Source of the DNA: a virus
Length of the DNA stretch: 64,000 bases
Virus record (IMG/VR): IMGVR_UViG_3300046665_000384
Span: 28,974-92,973 of that record
Direction: 5' to 3' (one strand)
The translations under genes and the position numbers were made by a program. The stretch's first letter is position 1. The number at the start of each line of letters is the position of its first letter. Below the pieces are notes generated by a model. The model was not told the origin of the DNA. It did not search any database and saw only the letters and a list, made by a program, of their open reading frames with translations. Positions 3,874 to 64,000 of this stretch are shown here, in pieces.

Positions 3874-4113
3874 ATGCGAGCAAGATTTCCAATTGGCTTT
3901 GAATTTGAGAAAAAACGTGTCCCGAAGGAAAAGTTTTTTACCTCCTACCGGATTGATGACGTCTTGGTGACGCGTAGCGTCGCTACGGACGAAATCGTGC
4001 GCATTGAATACCGCGTGTCACATGTTTTCCTAGGCCAACGCATCCCAGAACTCATGGTTGACACCACCATTGCGCGCTCTTTGAGCAACGAAAAGTTAGC
4101 TGAATTCGCCTAA
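3874..4113 (+). CDS. small early protein
   Basis: GGAG RBS downstream of promoter. Confidence 0.55.
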   Translation: MRARFPIGFEFEKKRVPKEKFFTSYRIDDVLVTRSVATDEIVRIEYRVSHVFLGQRIPELMVDTTIARSLSNEKLAEFA

Positions 4114-4222
4114 CACCACCCCGCGCCCGCTTCGGCGGGCACTTCGCCAACAGCCCGCCACGAGCGGGCTTTCCCACTGAAAGCGGCGCACTGGGCGCGG
4201 CGATTACCGGAAGGGCAGAATT

Positions 4223-6920: not shown

Positions 6921-8564
6921 ATGGAAACGAAGAACAACACCGCCAGCATCGATCTGGCCCAGCTGGAAGCACTGGCGCGAGCGGCCGATCCGAACGGCGC
7001 GTATCATCTTGTTACCCACTATCGCCACGGCGCAGACGTGAAGGCCGAGGAGGCATGGCGGCAAGCCGCGACCCCGGCCGCCGTGCGCCAGCTGATCGAC
7101 CTCGTGCGCCGCGCCCAGCCGCGCGTAACCGAGCAGGCGGACGAACGGGCGAAGTTATCGCAAGATGAGGTGATTGAGCTTCTTCGCGCAGCAGGCATCC
7201 CAGATAACCAGCTTCGCCTACTGTATGGCGGACATGGTCTGACCTTGTACCTTGAGCACTTGACCACTTTCGCCAACACGACCCGCGCCGCGCTCACCCA
7301 GCAAGCCGCGCCCGAAGCACCTACCGAGAACGCCGAACTCACCACGTTGCTAGAAAAACTCCATGAGCACTGGGGCGACTGCTTGTGGATAGACGCCAGC
7401 GAATTGATGGCATTAGAGAAAGTGATTACGTCCGCACCGGCCGCACAGCAGGCAGGAGCGGCTGTCGATGACGGCTACCGCTGGCGCGACTGCGAGGATT
7501 GCGGCGGCAGCGGTCGCATCAGCCCGAACGAACTGTGCGCGCGCTGTGAGAAAAGCGGCATTCTTCCTGCGGCCACCACGGCAAGCGCGAGCTATGAGAT
7601 GCCGGAAGGCGTCAAGAACCAGATCGAAACGCTGGGATGGAAGCTGCGCAACCACGAGCGGGCCTTAGAAATGCGCAAGCTGCACGACAAGGGCGACGTC
7701 TGGTACTGGCAGGGCGATGGCGGCGACAACTTGGAATCGATGAGCATGGGCATGGTCGTTGTGATCTGCGCTGACGACTTCCGCGCAGCCCTCGCCCGCG
7801 CCCAAGCACCCAGCCGGGATGCTGCGCCGCTGGAAGCCATCCGGACATTACGCATCGCTCTCATCAATGCTGCCGTGAAACCTCAATGGGCCGAAAGCAT
7901 CGCCCAGCGCGCACTGGAGGCGACAAAACAATTTGCAGGCGCTGATCTCGCCCAGCAGGGCGCATCCCATGCACCGCTGACCGGTGATGCCGCCGAGTTG
8001 GACGCGTGCGCTGCAATGCGCGCTCAATGCGGGCACTGCGGCGGCACGGGCGACGTACATCGTGGCGATGGCGAATACATCGGCGAATGCTGGTGCAAGG
8101 CCAGTGGGAACGACGGGCTGACCGCTGCCGAGCGCACCTTCGTAGAAGTGGTGCGCCAGCGCCCCGGCCACAAGCTGAATTCCGGCGAAGCGTGGGGCCC
8201 CGAGGGCCAAGCGCTATGGGAAGCCCCGGAAAATCTGGGCCTGATCCGATGCGTGGGCAGCTTCAAATGGGTCGTGCCGGGCGCGCAGGCGCAGAACCCG
8301 GTGGCCGATGCTGTGCGCGCCGCGATCTGGAGCGCTGACGCGCCGACCGAGCAGCGCTGGTACTGGCACTGGAGCGGCAACCCGGACGATGCTCCGTTCC
8401 CGCTGTCGGTGCTGTGGAGCGGCACCGCGAAGAAGTGCTTCGTGTCGATGAACCAGACCGAGAGCGGCACCGCTGAATGGTGCGACGAATACGGCGGTTA
8501 TTGGACGCCCATCGTGGAGCCGCGCATTCCTGAAACCCTGCCGAAGAAGGGGAAGGCCCGATGA
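6921..8564 (+). CDS. Ead/Ea22-like polyvalent protein with two DnaJ-type CxxCxGxG fingers
   Basis: IDLAQLEALARAA..ATPAAVRQLI N-term; CEDCGGSG, CGHCGGTG. Confidence 0.65.
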   Translation: METKNNTASIDLAQLEALARAADPNGAYHLVTHYRHGADVKAEEAWRQAATPAAVRQLIDLVRRAQPRVTEQADERAKLSQDEVIELLRAAGIPDNQLRLLYGGHGLTLYLEHLTTFANTTRAALTQQAAPEAPTENAELTTLLEKLHEHWGDCLWIDASELMALEKVITSAPAAQQAGAAVDDGYRWRDCEDCGGSGRISPNELCARCEKSGILPAATTASASYEMPEGVKNQIETLGWKLRNHERALEMRKLHDKGDVWYWQGDGGDNLESMSMGMVVVICADDFRAALARAQAPSRDAAPLEAIRTLRIALINAAVKPQWAESIAQRALEATKQFAGADLAQQGASHAPLTGDAAELDACAAMRAQCGHCGGTGDVHRGDGEYIGECWCKASGNDGLTAAERTFVEVVRQRPGHKLNSGEAWGPEGQALWEAPENLGLIRCVGSFKWVVPGAQAQNPVADAVRAAIWSADAPTEQRWYWHWSGNPDDAPFPLSVLWSGTAKKCFVSMNQTESGTAEWCDEYGGYWTPIVEPRIPETLPKKGKAR

Positions 8565-9956: not shown

Positions 9957-10247
9957 TTACGCGGTCACACGGACGGCGTGGGTTGCCGAGCAGCTGATCG
10001 ACGAGGTGCTGATGACCGGCGAATCAGCCGGGCCGGACCAGCTCAGGTAGCCGCTGCACGACACGGAAACGTTCTTGGTGTCGTCGTCCGCCAACAGGTC
10101 GACGACGGCATTGACGTTGGCCAGCACGGCGTCGCGGTCGCGCGCATGCATCGGCTGGTGCGCGAGGACGATTTCATCGAATTTGGCGGCGGCGGCCGCT
10201 TTGACTCCGGCCTTATCTGCTGCTGCGACGGTGAACGAAAAGCTCAT
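9957..10247 (-). CDS. hypothetical protein
   Basis: AAGGA RBS; MSFSFTV...SVSCSGYLSW. Confidence 0.6.
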   Translation of the reverse strand: MSFSFTVAAADKAGVKAAAAAKFDEIVLAHQPMHARDRDAVLANVNAVVDLLADDDTKNVSVSCSGYLSWSGPADSPVISTSSISCSATHAVRVTA

Positions 10248-10497: not shown

Positions 10498-10651
10498 TTA
10501 AAGGACTTTTAATCGACAATACATTTTCTATTGTCGAGTCCGGTTGTTGCGCGAATCCGGCCCGAGAACGTCCCGGAAAACGGTCCCAGAGTGCCTAGCG
10601 GTGATCTGCCCAGCTTCGCGCCCGGTATGGTCGCCACACACTACGGGGATG

Positions 10652-10712: not shown

Positions 10713-10742
10713 TTGACAGTTAGTTTCGTGATCGCATACATT
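10713..10742 (+). promoter_or_regulatory. sigma70 promoter with operator
   Basis: TTGACA-N18-TACATT; GTGATCGCATAC at 10728-10739. Confidence 0.75.
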
Positions 10743-10995: not shown

Positions 10996-11303
10996 CGAAG
11001 GCCCCTAGCACCATGCTGCTGAACCTCAGTTCCCTCATGCTCCGCCTGCTGGCGCAGCACGCACCCCTCGGCAGCTTGCTTGCGAAGATCGGCATGCAGC
11101 TGCGCCACCGCCACGACGCCGCCAGCGGGGTCCAGATCATGGCCGACGACAGCGACGCCGCGTGCATCGCCCGGTGCGCGCTGGATCGGTTCGAGGCACT
11201 GGGCCACGCCATTGCCGCCGCCGAGACTGACGCGGACAAGGAACCGCTGTTCATCGAGTACCACGCGTGGCGCGCGCTCGTGCGCCAGCTGCCGCCGGCT
11301 TGA
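10992..11303 (+). CDS. hypothetical protein
   Basis: ATGA coupling. Confidence 0.5.
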   Translation: MTKAPSTMLLNLSSLMLRLLAQHAPLGSLLAKIGMQLRHRHDAASGVQIMADDSDAACIARCALDRFEALGHAIAAAETDADKEPLFIEYHAWRALVRQLPPA

Positions 11304-11328
11304 GCGCCCGCCGGGTCCGTGCTAAAGT
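11300..11328 (+). promoter_or_regulatory. sigma70 promoter for putative ncRNA
   Basis: TTGAGC-N17-TAAAGT with extended TGn. Confidence 0.5.
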
Positions 11329-11334
11329 ACCCGG

Positions 11335-11660
11335 CAACCACACGGCTGGCATCTACCGAGGAGCGAGAACACACACAGGTAATGCTGGTGCAGTGCGCGG
11401 GCGGATAGGTGGGGTAGTCGCCAGCCGTGTGGTGATCCACGAAGAAGCGGGAGAAAGACGGCCCTTGAATCCCTCGACAAACAATAGCAGCAGTAAGTGG
11501 GCCTAGCCGGGGTGGGACCGGCAAGTAATAAGCCACTTCGCATGAAGGCTGAGCAGGCTACGAGTTAGCGCTTGCTGTCGGTAGTGGCCGGTTCGATCCC
11601 GGCAGCCGCGAAGATTGGAAACCGTCCGTAAGCCCCGGCCCCGCGCCGGGGCTTTTGTTT
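11335..11660 (+). ncRNA. putative structured ncRNA with tRNA-like 3' domain
   Basis: 14-bp stem 11337-11350/11420-11433; T-arm GCCGG-TTCGATC-CCGGC at 11587-11603; own promoter and terminator; no credible ORF. Confidence 0.55.
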
Positions 11661-11661
11661 T
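11630..11661 (+). terminator. intrinsic terminator
   Basis: AAGCCCCGGC-loop-GCCGGGGCTTTTGTTTT. Confidence 0.85.
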
Positions 11662-11790
11662 CGTCCTGCGAATTCCACAGGGCGGCCGAAATCGACCGCT
11701 TGCGGCCGCCCTCGCCGGCCATGTCCAAAACCATGCCTTTCCAGTTTTGGATGCGCCCCAACTTTCGCACACCGATATTGCACAAATTGC

Positions 11791-11819
11791 TTGACAGCAG
11801 TTTTGTGAGCGCATACATT
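11791..11819 (+). promoter_or_regulatory. sigma70 promoter with operator
   Basis: TTGACA-N17-TACATT; GTGAGCGCATAC at 11805-11816. Confidence 0.75.
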
Positions 11820-14954: not shown

Positions 14955-15077
14955 ATGAGCAAAAAGCAGTTCGCAAAACTGGCTGCAAAATTCGGAGGCT
15001 GGATGGAGGGCGACGTAGCGCGCTTCCCGACTGTATGGGCAAAGCAGGAATTTGAGAAGGCACTTGCTGCCGCCTAA
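14955..15077 (+). CDS. 40-aa small protein (MSKKQFAKLAAKFGGW...)
   Basis: Read manually; same leader as 4223. Confidence 0.5.
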   Translation: MSKKQFAKLAAKFGGWMEGDVARFPTVWAKQEFEKALAAA

Positions 15078-15124
15078 ACACCAACCCGCGCCCGCTTCGG
15101 TGGGCGCGCTTTTAGGAGCCGAGA

Positions 15125-48528: not shown

Positions 48529-50459
48529 TAATGCCCTGCCATTCCGCCCGTTGCAATGTGCGCGAGCCTGCGGTCCTTCACGTCTTGGTTCGCGAGGGAA
48601 TCGTTCGCCACCACCACCGGCTGTGCGGGCTTGCTGTTGAGCTGCACCGGGATGTCCACGCGCGGCGCTTGCGGCGGCAGGGGCGCGGTGGCGGTGGCGC
48701 TCTGCGGGATCGACGGGACCGACTTCGCCGAGGGCATGCCCGGCGCGGCTGTCACGGACGGGATCGATGGCACCGCGTCCGACACCCGCGTCACGCCGAC
48801 CTTGTAGCCCTCGACCTTGCGCATGCCGTCGAGAAGGACGCCCAGCTCTTGGCTCGACATGTCACCGATCTTCTTGCCGCGCAGGTCGATCCCCTTGGCG
48901 TCCGCCGACTTGTAAATGCTGCTCGCGTAGGCTTGCACGTTTGCCTTGCCCGAGTAATCGGAGATGGCATACTTCGGCAGCATTTCCTCAATGGTCTTGT
49001 TGCCGTGCTTGCTCGTCAGCAGCTGCGCCTGCGCGGCGCGGCCGGCGCTTTCCGAGCTGAAGATTGCATTGCCCCACTGGTCGAGGTCGACCACTTCGTT
49101 ACCGTATGCCTTCTTCGCCGCCGCCAGCGCGTCGGCTTTCGACCGCTTCGTGTTGACGGTCTTGTCGGCGCTCCCCGCGTATCCGAATTTCAGGTTGCCG
49201 GGATTGTTGTTTCGCCACGAGACCGTGCCGCCGTCGCGCATCTCGGTCGACCCGTCCGCGCGCTCGTAGACGCGTGCGGTGCCCTTCGCCGAGAGCAGGC
49301 GGCCAATCGGCGCGACCGCGCCAGCCGCCCAGTCCTTCGCGGCGGTCAGGCCCGCGCCTGTTCGCTCCTTCGCGGCGGCCAGCCCGGCGCTGGCGCGGTC
49401 CGCCAGCTTCTGCGCCCCGCCGGCCACGTCGATGCCCGTTTTCTCCTTGATAAAGTCGTTCGCGGCCTCGCCGGCCTTTCTGACGATCCCCAGCTTGTCC
49501 GCCACCATGTCCACCAGCTTGCCGGCCAGCTCCTTTACCTTGTCGCCGACCAAGGCCCAGCCTGCGGCGATGGCGGTGACGATGGCGGCCCCCATCGGGC
49601 TGAAGATGAACTGTGCCACGTCCTTGATGATCCCGAGCATGCCGCCATCGCCACCGCCACCCGCGTGAATCCCGCCGATGGCGCGCAGCTCGGCCCGGTC
49701 GAACTCCCGATCTTCCTTGCGCATGATCTTGAGCTGGCTGAGGATGCGGCGGTACCACGGCAGCGCGTCGCTCGACTTGTCGTGCTTGACGCCCCGGCCG
49801 ATAACGGCCTTGCCGACCTCGCCAACGGCCTTCAGCGGGCCGCCGGCCAGATTGCGCAGCTCGTTCGCCGCCTCGATGGCCGGGTCGATCTTTTCCAGAT
49901 CGCCACCGCTGCCGCCATGCCCGGAGACCGCTGTTTTCAGCCTTGCAAGCAATCCATCCTTGTCGCTACGGGCCGAGCCGCTTTCCGTGCCGCCGCCGGC
50001 ACCGAAGCGCCCGCGTGCGTCGCGCACCTGCGCGGAACCGGCCGCCTGCGCGCTGCGTTCGCGGTTGGCGCGCGATGTCTCGGCGCGCTGCTCGGCCGCC
50101 GCCTGCTGGGCCTGCTGGCGCGTCAGCTGCCGCACGGCGCGTTCCACCGGGTCGCCCGCGCGCTGCGCGCTGGCGATGAACCGCCCCCGGCTGTCTCGCG
50201 CACGGTCGACCCCGCCCGCTGCGCTGCGCGTGCCGACCGGGACGGATGCGGTATTTCGCGCGCTGGCCGACGCGGCGCGCTGGCCGCCGGCATTGGGGTT
50301 GGCCGGGCGCGCGCGCTGGAGCACATTGGATCGCACCTGCCCCTTGAGCAACCGGATGACGGTTGCCGTGTCGCGCTTGATCGCCTTCAGGGTAGGCGTC
50401 GCCTCGTCGGCAGGGAGCCTATGGTCGGGGACGAGAAACCCGTATTGGTCTGCGTTCAT
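48528..50459 (-). CDS. tape-measure protein with lytic (RNNNPGNL) domain, Sit-like
   Basis: RD.RGRF repeats, TM segment, WRNNNPGNL...F.....G..A...LL...KYA. Confidence 0.75.
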   Translation of the reverse strand: MNADQYGFLVPDHRLPADEATPTLKAIKRDTATVIRLLKGQVRSNVLQRARPANPNAGGQRAASASARNTASVPVGTRSAAGGVDRARDSRGRFIASAQRAGDPVERAVRQLTRQQAQQAAAEQRAETSRANRERSAQAAGSAQVRDARGRFGAGGGTESGSARSDKDGLLARLKTAVSGHGGSGGDLEKIDPAIEAANELRNLAGGPLKAVGEVGKAVIGRGVKHDKSSDALPWYRRILSQLKIMRKEDREFDRAELRAIGGIHAGGGGDGGMLGIIKDVAQFIFSPMGAAIVTAIAAGWALVGDKVKELAGKLVDMVADKLGIVRKAGEAANDFIKEKTGIDVAGGAQKLADRASAGLAAAKERTGAGLTAAKDWAAGAVAPIGRLLSAKGTARVYERADGSTEMRDGGTVSWRNNNPGNLKFGYAGSADKTVNTKRSKADALAAAKKAYGNEVVDLDQWGNAIFSSESAGRAAQAQLLTSKHGNKTIEEMLPKYAISDYSGKANVQAYASSIYKSADAKGIDLRGKKIGDMSSQELGVLLDGMRKVEGYKVGVTRVSDAVPSIPSVTAAPGMPSAKSVPSIPQSATATAPLPPQAPRVDIPVQLNSKPAQPVVVANDSLANQDVKDRRLAHIATGGMAGH

Positions 50460-61524: not shown

Positions 61525-64000
61525 TTACGCTGCCGCCATCGCCTCCGCCATGAAGTTCGTATATGCCTCGATGGCCTGTCCCCACAGGGCTTCGACCTCG
61601 ACGTCGCCCGCGTAAGCTTCGCCGATTTTCTCGATCCGCTCGGCCAGATCGTCCGCCCACATATCGACGTTTTTGGACACTACGTCCTTCAGGAACGCGA
61701 TGTCGACGGCGCGCTGCGGGTTCGCGTCCGGGGTGACGTCGCTCGCGTCACCGCCGCCCGGCAGCTCGACCTTGGCGACCGGGGCCGGCGCATCCGGGGC
61801 CTTCCAGTTCAGGTCCGCCCATTCCTCGGCCATGACGCTCGCCACCTCGGCGGCGAGGTCCGGGCGTTTGGTCGCGATGTAGTCGGCCAGCGCCGCGCGG
61901 TGCGCGCCGGCTTCGTTCAGCACCCGGTAGACGTTGATGCGGGCCAGCTGCTCGATGGAGTCAGCGCCGACCTTGATGAAGGTTTCCATGTTCACGTTCG
62001 TGTCCTGTTGCGGTTGCGGCTCGATGGCCGGGGCAGGGGCGGGCGTCACCAGTGCTGCCAGATCGGCCGCTTCGCCATCGTTCAGGCGCTCGTCCGCGCG
62101 AATCTGTTCCAGCATGCCGGCCGGGATCGCGCGGCCTGCGGCCTGTTCCTGCTCGATGTACGCGCGGTAGCTCTCGAACTGGGCGCTACGGCCGCTGGGC
62201 GTGGGCTCGATCACTTCCGGCTCCTCGTCGTCGGCCGCGCCAATGGCCTTGCGCACCGCGCCCACGGTCTGCTTTTCCCAGTTCAGGTCCAGCTCGACGT
62301 TGTGGTCGACCAGCTCGTCGATGCTGATGTAGCCCAGCTCGGCATTCTGGCGGTCGCCGTTGAGGATCGCGAGGCCGAACGCCTGCTCGGTACCCTTGCC
62401 TTCCTTGTCGCGCTCGGTGATGTACCAGTCGGAGCTGCCCCGGAAGTAGTGCAGGGACACCACGGCCTTGTGGCCCATGCCGTCCTGCTCGTACGTCTTG
62501 GGCATCTTCGCGATGATCCCGGACATCTCGACCATCTTGTCAAAGAAATATTGCGCTTCCTCGCCGTTCATGGCGCTTTGGATGAAGCTGTACTGCATGC
62601 GCGGCATCCACGGCTTGAGCTTGGCCAGCGCGGCGCGGCCTTCTGCCTCGGTGGCCTGCGGCTCGGGCTGCACGTCGTCCTCGCCGTCCACGGTGGCCAC
62701 TTCCGGCGCTTCGCCTTCGATGAACAGGTTGAAAACCTCGCCGGATGAGCCTACACTATCGAGCAGGACTTGCTGCGCCGACGGCTCGGTGCAGAGTAGG
62801 GCGAGCAGCGAAAGACCCGTGCCATCGACGGAATCGAGTACCTCCGTGCTTCCACCCAAGTCCTCCTTATTCACGCTGTGGTCGTAGAAGAACGAGCCAT
62901 CGTCGCGTTCCTTCACGATCACACGCACCGTCAGGGCGTCGCCAGCCAACGCCACATCCGCCTTCAACACATGCACAGCCACGACGCGGGGCTCATCCCC
63001 GCGCAGCGGCAGCTTGCGCGTGCTCACGGCGTCCGCGAGGATCGTCGGCAGGGCTGGGACCAGCTTCAGCTTGCGCGGATCGGCGCTGAACGACAGCACC
63101 TTTTTCATGCCGGCGCGCTGGATTTCGATGTCTTTGTCGAGCGACTTGTTGAATACGGCAGTGCCCAGCAGCCGGTCCTTGAAGTAGGATTTCGCCGCGT
63201 CGCGCAGCTGGCGCTTTCCTTCGTCGGTCGTCTCGAACTGGCCCAGCTCGTCGCCGCTGACGGTCGCGGCCGGGGCCGGTTGCGCGAGCTGCACGTCGGC
63301 CGGGGCGGGGCGCTGGAATCCACGCTCGATGACTGCCTTGACGGCCTCCTCCTTGGTAAAGCCGAGGAAATCGTCGCTGAAGTGGCGGCCCGTATCGGCT
63401 TGGTACCACCAGCCGCTTTCCGGATCGCGGTAAATCTTGTAGGTCTTGCCGTCCGGCGCGGTCACGTCGTATTCGCCGCTGTCGGCGAAATCGTCGGCGC
63501 GCTTGACGGTTGGCTGCGGCACGGCCGGTGCCGGCGCGGCACCACCGAACAGGGGCCGGTACTGCTCCCAGTCCGGCGCGGCGCTCCACACGCCGTTGCG
63601 CGCGGTGATGGCGGGCTTTGCAAATTTGCTTTGCGCCTCGGCCAGCCACGCGAGCAGGATGGCGGCCAGCTGCGGATCGTTCTTCGCCTGCGTCTTGACC
63701 TTGTTCACGATGCTGCTGGCGAACAGCGAACGGTCCCAGCCGCGCGCCGTGCCCTCGTCCACAGCCTTGATGGTCGCGAGCGAGCCGGTAAAGTCACGCG
63801 TCAGCTTCTTGAACGTCGGATCGTTCTCGACGCGTGCGCGTGCGGTAGCCAGCGGGTCCAGCTCTCCGGTTTCCGCCGCGTTGGCTTCGGCGATCTGCCC
63901 GACGAGGGCGACGACTTCGCCCGCGATTGCCAACTCGGCCAGCGGATCCGCATTCTCGCCCAGTGCGAGCAGCGCCGCGCGGCGCGCGATCACGCGGCCT
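61525..64000 (-). CDS. DarA-like large polyvalent virion protein (5' end outside window)
   Basis: LPD3-like domain (N..L...I.....G.K...V.VIVKE...G.FFYD), LHYF....DWYITE domain, DarA-C-like helical tail. Confidence 0.6.
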   Translation of the reverse strand, partial: GRVIARRAALLALGENADPLAELAIAGEVVALVGQIAEANAAETGELDPLATARARVENDPTFKKLTRDFTGSLATIKAVDEGTARGWDRSLFASSIVNKVKTQAKNDPQLAAILLAWLAEAQSKFAKPAITARNGVWSAAPDWEQYRPLFGGAAPAPAVPQPTVKRADDFADSGEYDVTAPDGKTYKIYRDPESGWWYQADTGRHFSDDFLGFTKEEAVKAVIERGFQRPAPADVQLAQPAPAATVSGDELGQFETTDEGKRQLRDAAKSYFKDRLLGTAVFNKSLDKDIEIQRAGMKKVLSFSADPRKLKLVPALPTILADAVSTRKLPLRGDEPRVVAVHVLKADVALAGDALTVRVIVKERDDGSFFYDHSVNKEDLGGSTEVLDSVDGTGLSLLALLCTEPSAQQVLLDSVGSSGEVFNLFIEGEAPEVATVDGEDDVQPEPQATEAEGRAALAKLKPWMPRMQYSFIQSAMNGEEAQYFFDKMVEMSGIIAKMPKTYEQDGMGHKAVVSLHYFRGSSDWYITERDKEGKGTEQAFGLAILNGDRQNAELGYISIDELVDHNVELDLNWEKQTVGAVRKAIGAADDEEPEVIEPTPSGRSAQFESYRAYIEQEQAAGRAIPAGMLEQIRADERLNDGEAADLAALVTPAPAPAIEPQPQQDTNVNMETFIKVGADSIEQLARINVYRVLNEAGAHRAALADYIATKRPDLAAEVASVMAEEWADLNWKAPDAPAPVAKVELPGGGDASDVTPDANPQRAVDIAFLKDVVSKNVDMWADDLAERIEKIGEAYAGDVEVEALWGQAIEAYTNFMAEAMAAA

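Follow-up and report, generated by a model that had tools for sequence, protein, structure and literature searches.

Locus and predicted transcription unit

The DNA analyzed here, a stretch of 64,000 nucleotides referred to as the window, comprises bases 28974-92973 of a 92,973 bp virus record in IMG/VR that is rated complete. The G+C content of the record is 63.5%. Genes for a tail sheath, a portal, and a large terminase mark the phage as myovirus-like. A Noviherbaspirillum MAG (69% identity) and Pusillimonas (50%) encode relatives of its portal, which points to a probable host within the Burkholderiales. The region of interest is flanked by the end of a small gene (11303) and the start of another gene (11868), and a promoter scan identified a near-consensus, operator-controlled promoter belonging to the downstream gene at 11791-11819. 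Judged from its sequence, the region most likely represents a real non-coding RNA gene of accessory nature, ~325-330 nt long and on the + strand. The following features were assigned, all on the + strand:

11300-11328, + strand: promoter-like site, with a -35 element TTGAGC (11300-05), a 17-nt spacer, TG (11320-21), and TAAAGT (11323-28)
11337-11433, + strand: P1, a long 5' hairpin with a perfect 14-bp outer stem (11337-11350/11420-11433) and a variable distal part (11351-11419)
11434-11505, + strand: conserved core, consisting of a purine-rich linker, GAAGAAGCGGGAGAAAGACGG, and a mostly open loop closed by GGCCC (11460-64) and GGGCC (11499-503)
11506-11522, + strand: H2, a hairpin of the form GCCGG-GGTGGGA-CCGGC and the last element of the conserved module
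11523-11626, + strand: lineage-specific 3' domain, with a bulged acceptor-like helix, a hairpin (11553-58/11570-75), and a T-arm (11587-11603)
11630-11661, + strand: intrinsic terminator, with a 10-bp stem (8 G-C pairs), a 5-nt loop, and the tail TTTTGTTTT

The original prediction had described a self-contained, structured RNA with its own promoter, a strong terminator, no credible ORF, and a tRNA-like cloverleaf in its 3' domain. All of the motifs that it listed were found at the coordinates given. Specifically, the terminator was confirmed by a terminator scan, which returned the stem-loop at 11630-11654 followed by a U-tract, albeit one that is interrupted. The perfect 14-bp outer stem of P1 is likewise present, with a predicted pair probability of ~1.0. 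The claim of a dedicated promoter was upheld in part. Its motifs are in place, but they match only 8 of 12 consensus positions, which is below the threshold of the scan and explains why the site was not flagged. The extended -10 element (TGcTAaAGT) recurs in a related phage, L002, which retains TTGAAC-N18-TGcTACAGT with a diverged spacer. The promoter-like site is part of the phage backbone and not of the imported RNA module. We infer from its sequence that the site is functional; with no terminator intervening, read-through from the upstream operon and its promoter near 10713 is just as possible. The site also overlaps a potential 7-bp hairpin (GCCGGGT...ACCCGGC, window 11310-11335) that would hold the putative -10 element in its loop. 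At the same place, the homologous locus of a second phage (L022, described below) has GCCGG-AACCGTAA-CCGGC without the -10 letters, so in some contexts the RNA may have a start site further upstream or undergo processing.

The region contains no credible ORF: no overlapping ORF has a Pfam match or coding-like GC3, in agreement with the original prediction. The longest + frame, of 79 codons, is interrupted by a stop in the homologue. The only frame left common to both phages is a 13-codon micro-ORF (11465-11506) that is Asn/Ser-rich, is preceded by GGGAG, and has a TTG start 13 nt past this SD-like motif. The whole RNA was predicted to fold more stably than shuffled sequences, with z-scores of -3.07 for the + strand and -3.06 for the - strand. 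Since both strands score alike, the strand assignment is based on the terminator, not on the fold.

An accessory cassette with a conserved 5' module

The sole homologue was an ~570-nt RNA (locus L022) on IMG/VR contig 3300044694_000083, a 95,779-bp phage genome (G408). The large collections were searched by exact patterns only, and the count of two members therefore refers to what was found with these queries. Scans with five segments of the RNA in IMG/VR, two in metagenome contigs, and one in genome contigs yielded L022 as the only true match; the eleven other matches of one IMG/VR scan lay in AT-rich coding DNA and were attributed to chance. One segment of the phage backbone was also scanned by exact pattern in IMG/VR. 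BLAST against cultured-phage and plasmid collections returned only terminator matches or chance T-arm matches. Similarly, Burkholderiales genomes (401 searched with this RNA, 301 searched with the L022 RNA, and 20 from the genus of genome G076, discussed below) yielded homologues of neither the core nor the 3' domain, and in the genomes of the phage's relatives the only matches were an att-site tRNA fragment and chance similarities in coding DNA.

The two RNAs share the outer stem of P1, a 105-nt core, H2, and a homologous terminator, and each is a stand-alone, gene-free unit. Identity in the core (window 11420-11524, 105 nt) is 95%, with 73 nt identical, and all five substitutions fall at predicted unpaired positions. 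L022 retains both outer strands of P1 with a single C-G to U-G change, and its H2 has the loop GGTGGAG. The terminators are 86% identical over 29 nt, which indicates that the terminator arrived together with the module. The RNAs differ in the interior of P1, which in L022 is unrelated, shorter (42 vs 69 nt), and again self-complementary, and in the whole 3' domain, which in L022 is an unrelated sequence of ~230 nt that has no T-arm. Their settings differ as well: the L022 RNA lies in the head module, not in an early region, has no recognisable promoter at the homologous spot, and is followed ~40 nt past its terminator by the next gene, with no predicted promoter between. Because only two near-identical (95%) members are available, the structural model is supported thermodynamically and architecturally, not by covariation.

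Apart from the RNA, the two phages share a 96-aa protein (64% identity) and weak matches in giant structural proteins, and the RNA core is the best nucleotide match between their genomes. An almost letter-for-letter core is thus found in two unrelated Burkholderiales phages, with the flanking modules swapped. This high identity could reflect recent transfer, not selection. The 96-aa protein, of unknown function (phrog_28387), is encoded at window 9957-10247 on the - strand and at 61613-61837 in G408. It is the only small protein common to both RNA-bearing phages (72% identity at the nucleotide level), and its gene is not adjacent to the RNA in G408. In addition, elements of 35-43 nt located 3' of stop codons (window 15066-15107 and 4107-4140) recur in the otherwise unrelated G408 (48971-49012) with 93-94% identity; they are probably shared terminator-type modules.

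Relatives of the phage identified through the upstream protein were limited to L002, G002, and a protein of a Noviherbaspirillum MAG. In L002, whose upstream protein is 79-86% identical, the same flanks enclose only ~45 nt and a separate terminator. Shared parts of the flanks are TGcTACAGT at the -10 position and a downstream spacer that is ~93% identical by eye. In G002, a more distant, complete relative, the gene is followed by a terminator and then directly by the operator-controlled promoter. The absence of the RNA from the same slot in both relatives identifies the ~325-nt RNA as an accessory insertion outside the conserved regulatory circuit, and on these comparisons we describe it as an accessory ("moron"-type) cassette in an early region of the phage. 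Comparison with L002 further places the point at which the phage backbone resumes inside the T-tract of the terminator. The discreteness of the cassette, the conservation of its 5' and 3' ends in two unrelated phages, and its absence from close relatives bear out the original description of a self-contained, structured non-coding transcription unit. The short insert of L002 was considered as a related RNA and rejected, as the 8-mer that it shares, CTCGACAA, is not significant (p 0.17).

Some other non-coding elements were noted near the cassette. The spacer at 11655-11790, which separates the RNA terminator from the operator-controlled promoter, is ~93% identical to that of L002 by eye and is absent from G002. 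It contains a hairpin (11680-11688/11703-11711) with a 9-bp G+C stem, GGGCGGCCG...CGGCCGCCC, and no U-tract, and is conserved non-coding DNA. A perfect palindrome, TCGACAATA-N7-TATTGTCGA, occupies window 10513-10537 in an AT-rich gap. Its half-site matches the RNA loop CUCGACAAACAAUAG at 11 of 15 positions, which was judged to be chance. The same verdict was reached for the palindrome and a recurrent leader, "element C", as look-alikes of the RNA, with 8-11 nt in common.

Within the conserved module, the core loop contains UCCCUCGAC and an (ARN)6 run (11480-11497), and the core also carries a C-rich UCCCUC motif. The (ARN)6 run sits in a region predicted to be open and is the sole such run on either strand of the 93-kb genome, where shuffled sequences give 0.17. 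The core itself showed no excess stability over shuffles (z +0.4). Overall, the conserved and probably functional part is this 5' module, which the original prediction had treated as secondary. A role as a CsrA/RsmA sponge was rejected: the five GGA motifs are about the number that we estimated by hand from composition.

The 3' domain and its pairing with H2

The 3' domain contains an acceptor-like helix formed by CTTCGC (11536-41) and GGCT (11547-50), separated by a 5-nt bulge, with AGCCGCGAAG (11604-13). The adjoining T-arm is GCCGG-TTCGATC-CCGGC, and only one clean hairpin (11553-58/11570-75) lies between the helix and the T-arm. In the predicted fold, GACGG (11457-61) pairs with CCGTC (11622-26), as originally proposed, with a probability of 0.7, but the pairing has no counterpart in L022, where inspection by eye revealed no CCGTC partner downstream of the core. 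Taken by itself, the 3' domain did not exceed shuffles in stability (z -0.4 to -0.6), and a fold constrained to a cloverleaf had an energy of -28.8 kcal/mol, 1.5 above the minimum of -30.3 kcal/mol.

The T-arm is identical at 16 of 17 positions to that of tRNA-Leu(UAA/CAA) in four Burkholderiales genomes, one base of the loop being different. Outside these 17 nt, no likeness to tRNA-Leu was found, and the acceptor strand differs. ARAGORN detected no tRNA or tmRNA at its default and slightly relaxed (-ps) thresholds; at a threshold cut to 80%, it proposed an unconvincing "tmRNA" with "Tag not identified". No Rfam family matched the window at its gathering score, and searches at permissive E-values gave nothing meaningful, so the proposed check against known families yielded no assignment. 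Within the tRNA clan, tRNA-Sec scored best, with 12 bits (E 5.5) where the cut-off is 47 bits, and this match used only the T-arm and 4-5 bp. Phage structured RNAs outside the tRNA and tmRNA classes are poorly catalogued, and this one matches 0 of the 4227 families in Rfam.

These results exclude the RNA from several known classes. It is not a tRNA: it has no D-loop GG, only the T-arm is canonical, and ARAGORN and Rfam (RF00005 clan) were negative. The bulged acceptor and the lack of an encoded CCA agree with this, as the original prediction had recognised. Nor is it a tmRNA, as the Rfam tmRNA models were silent and the P1 stem sequesters the putative 5' acceptor partner. A TROVE (Rsr) domain is missing from the phage and the RNA had no Rfam match even at E up to 10, which eliminated YrlA and other bacterial Y RNAs; the lack of an RVT_1 domain in the phage similarly eliminated a retron msr-msd. 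Like the tRNA-like modules of tmRNA and YrlA, the domain has a canonical T-arm adjoining an acceptor-like helix in a larger RNA. Unlike them, it has no G3-U70 acceptor, CCA, recognised tag frame, or D-loop GG. The 3' domain is a partial tRNA mimic, not a tRNA, and is lineage-specific since L022 has an unrelated 3' domain instead. A possible mimic or decoy extends to the T-arm and the bulged helix only. The suggestion that CTGTC (11575) is a GUC anticodon, with a link to a TGT-like gene, was unsupported: CTGTC lies outside any anticodon-like loop.

The T-arm has the same stem as H2, and its T-loop is complementary to the H2 loop, such that the two elements can form 16 of 17 pairs, G-U pairs being allowed. 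In the full-length ensemble, the H2:T-arm duplex has a probability of ~1 and, as a consequence, the T-arm hairpin has a probability of ~0. The cloverleaf is the weak part of the original description; what stands of it is the canonical T-arm. The 93-kb genome contains four GCCGG-N7-CCGGC sites, and two of these are H2 and the T-arm. By inspection, the H2 loop variant of L022 (GA to AG) is still complementary to a T-loop. The H2/T-arm pairing may represent an intramolecular switch, a kissing contact, or an anti-T-arm element. We conclude that the RNA gene originally predicted is genuine and unusual, and that its cloverleaf and its analogy to the C4 and CI RNAs, considered below, were over-read.

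Possible functions of the RNA

Our preferred explanation, held tentatively, is that the locus is an autonomous, modular accessory RNA gene whose product acts in trans as an Hfq-type riboregulator or sponge. The explanation is favoured by the unique (ARN)6 run in the open core combined with the U-tail of the terminator. ARN repeats and U-tails are known signals for the distal and proximal faces of Hfq, respectively (PMC9037510), and sponge RNAs are among the Hfq binders (bioRxiv 10.1101/2021.04.25.441314). By prediction, the RNA has the sequence attributes of a class II sRNA or sponge, namely a single-stranded (ARN)n and a Rho-independent terminator with a U-tail. According to this model, the RNA would be transcribed as an autonomous non-coding unit of ~325 nt and held by Hfq through its ARN run on the distal face and its U-tail on the proximal face. 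The bound RNA would then act in trans, as a riboregulator or as a sponge of a host RNA or protein, with the T-arm domain as an accessory that may provide processing, stability, or decoy capacity. In its single-stranded ARN triplets and Rho-independent terminator U-tail, the RNA resembles ChiX, CrcZ, and the prophage RNA AgvB (PMC9037510; bioRxiv 10.1101/2021.04.25.441314), and, like AgvB, it is phage-borne and horizontally acquired. It is much longer and more structured than class II Hfq sRNAs, its own binding to Hfq is putative, and it has one ARN run, whereas CrcZ has several A-rich motifs. Several points weigh against an Hfq-type function: the ARN periodicity could stem from the 13-codon micro-ORF, the U-tail is interrupted, neither the core nor the 3' domain folds more stably than shuffles, no target was found in the phage, and dependence on a host Hfq is assumed. 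Tests of duplexes between the core and host toxic sRNAs, the host RNA hairpin described next, or tRNA-Leu gave no informative z-scores. If the RNA does regulate while bound to Hfq, it would add a rare case for phages of betaproteobacteria.

The 3' domains of the two RNAs are swapped on a constant 5' part. In L022, the 3' domain (8181-8203) contains a 23-nt exact copy of a host RNA hairpin, GCCACTTTCCAGATAGGACTGGG, that occurs twice in the Burkholderiales genome G076 (L082 and L083). One of these copies lies between two genes of RF02278, "Betaproteobacteria toxic small RNA", and the other near a tRNA gene cluster; the host RNA itself has no Rfam family. The copy in L022 parallels the tRNA-Leu T-arm copy in the present phage and suggests a constant chassis on which host-RNA mimics are displayed. 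In such an arrangement, interchangeable heads would reproduce invariant hairpins of abundant host RNAs, here the T-arm of tRNA-Leu with an acceptor-like minihelix and in L022 the hairpin of a multi-copy host sRNA, and the RNA would serve to decoy a host enzyme or a defence nuclease with specificity for such hairpins. Its position among small early genes, a typical site of counter-defence genes, is in keeping with this function. However, T-arms are generic, nothing beyond the 17 nt resembles tRNA-Leu, and the T-arm is buried in the H2 duplex in the thermodynamic ensemble. A decoy for anticodon nucleases in particular is not expected because the RNA has no anticodon arm. Altogether, we regard the display of host-RNA mimics as unlikely, if conceivable. 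The broader proposal of a new phage RNA family, in which P1, the ARN-rich core, H2, and the terminator form a chassis for host-hairpin heads and the whole is a modular decoy or sensor directed at RNA-recognising enzymes or defence nucleases, is rather more doubtful. If it were true, phages would shuffle RNA domains much as they shuffle protein domains, and would do so to target the RNA-handling machinery of the host.

A cis-acting leader or attenuator could also make use of the H2/T-arm pairing. Whether through translation of the micro-ORF or through a bound ligand or tRNA, the RNA would toggle between the two hairpins and their duplex and so govern read-through of the terminator into downstream genes. 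The micro-ORF is conserved and preceded by GGGAG, the two pairings are mutually exclusive, the next gene in L022 closely follows the terminator with no predicted promoter between, and the H2 loop region resembles GGGUGGNACC, the core of the T-box. Nevertheless, the downstream gene in the present phage has a strong operator-controlled promoter that is conserved in relatives without the RNA, the would-be switch 3' domains are unrelated in the two phages, the TTG start lies 13 nt past the SD-like motif, the alternative pairing leaves the terminator uninvolved, and Rfam returned no T-box or other riboswitch. An attenuator is accordingly quite improbable. Still less probable is the model originally put forward, an RNase P-processed antisense immunity regulator analogous to the P1 C4 or P4 CI RNA. 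The P1/P7 C4 and P4 CI RNAs are phage small RNAs whose tRNA-like acceptor/T-arm shape is used in maturation. They are ~77-80 nt long, precede their targets in the immunity operon, contain target-complementary seeds, and end in CCA. A T-arm with an adjoining helix has the shape of a minimal RNase P substrate, and the present phage is likewise P1-sized (93 kb) with many operator-controlled promoters. Its RNA differs in being 325 nt long and in having no target complementarity, no CCA, a bulged acceptor, and no conservation among relatives, which keep the same operator-controlled promoters and regulatory layout without it. The homologue, moreover, has no tRNA-like domain and lies in the head module. 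The antisense-target search that had been proposed, carried out as genome-wide ungapped complementarity over the 93-kb phage, revealed nothing above chance and nothing at a translation start; the best complementarity was 15-16 nt with 1-2 G-U pairs, in coding DNA. An immunity role is thus unsupported, given the lack of an antisense target in the phage and the existence of relatives without the RNA.

Finally, the region might be non-functional recombination debris or a plain 3' UTR, perhaps with a relic of a tRNA, a tmRNA, or a former attachment site. Relatives dispense with the cassette, its composition is mosaic, ARAGORN proposed its "tmRNA" at the 80% threshold only, and a related provirus, G004, has inserted at the 3' end of a tRNA-Leu gene whose T-arm is of the same kind. 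These points are offset by the retention of the core at 95% identity and of the terminator at 86% identity in an unrelated phage, by adjoining replacements that preserve the P1 hairpin, and by the restriction of the tRNA-Leu match to the T-arm. The phage has no Phage_integrase domain, which makes an att relic unlikely, and the RNA was likewise rejected as an attP core on account of this lack and the 17-nt limit of the identity. Debris or a 3' UTR is on balance improbable. The Hfq-type regulator thus remains our tentative choice, and the two natural variants, from this phage and L022, allow a direct bench comparison.

The provirus G004 of Pusillimonas is a distant relative whose portal is 50% identical to that of the present phage. 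Its insertion at the 3' end of the tRNA-Leu gene lies at L010 1480-1530, and the att fragment, comprising the T-arm, acceptor, and CCA, adjoins an apparent integrase gene recognised by eye from its N-terminal sequence.
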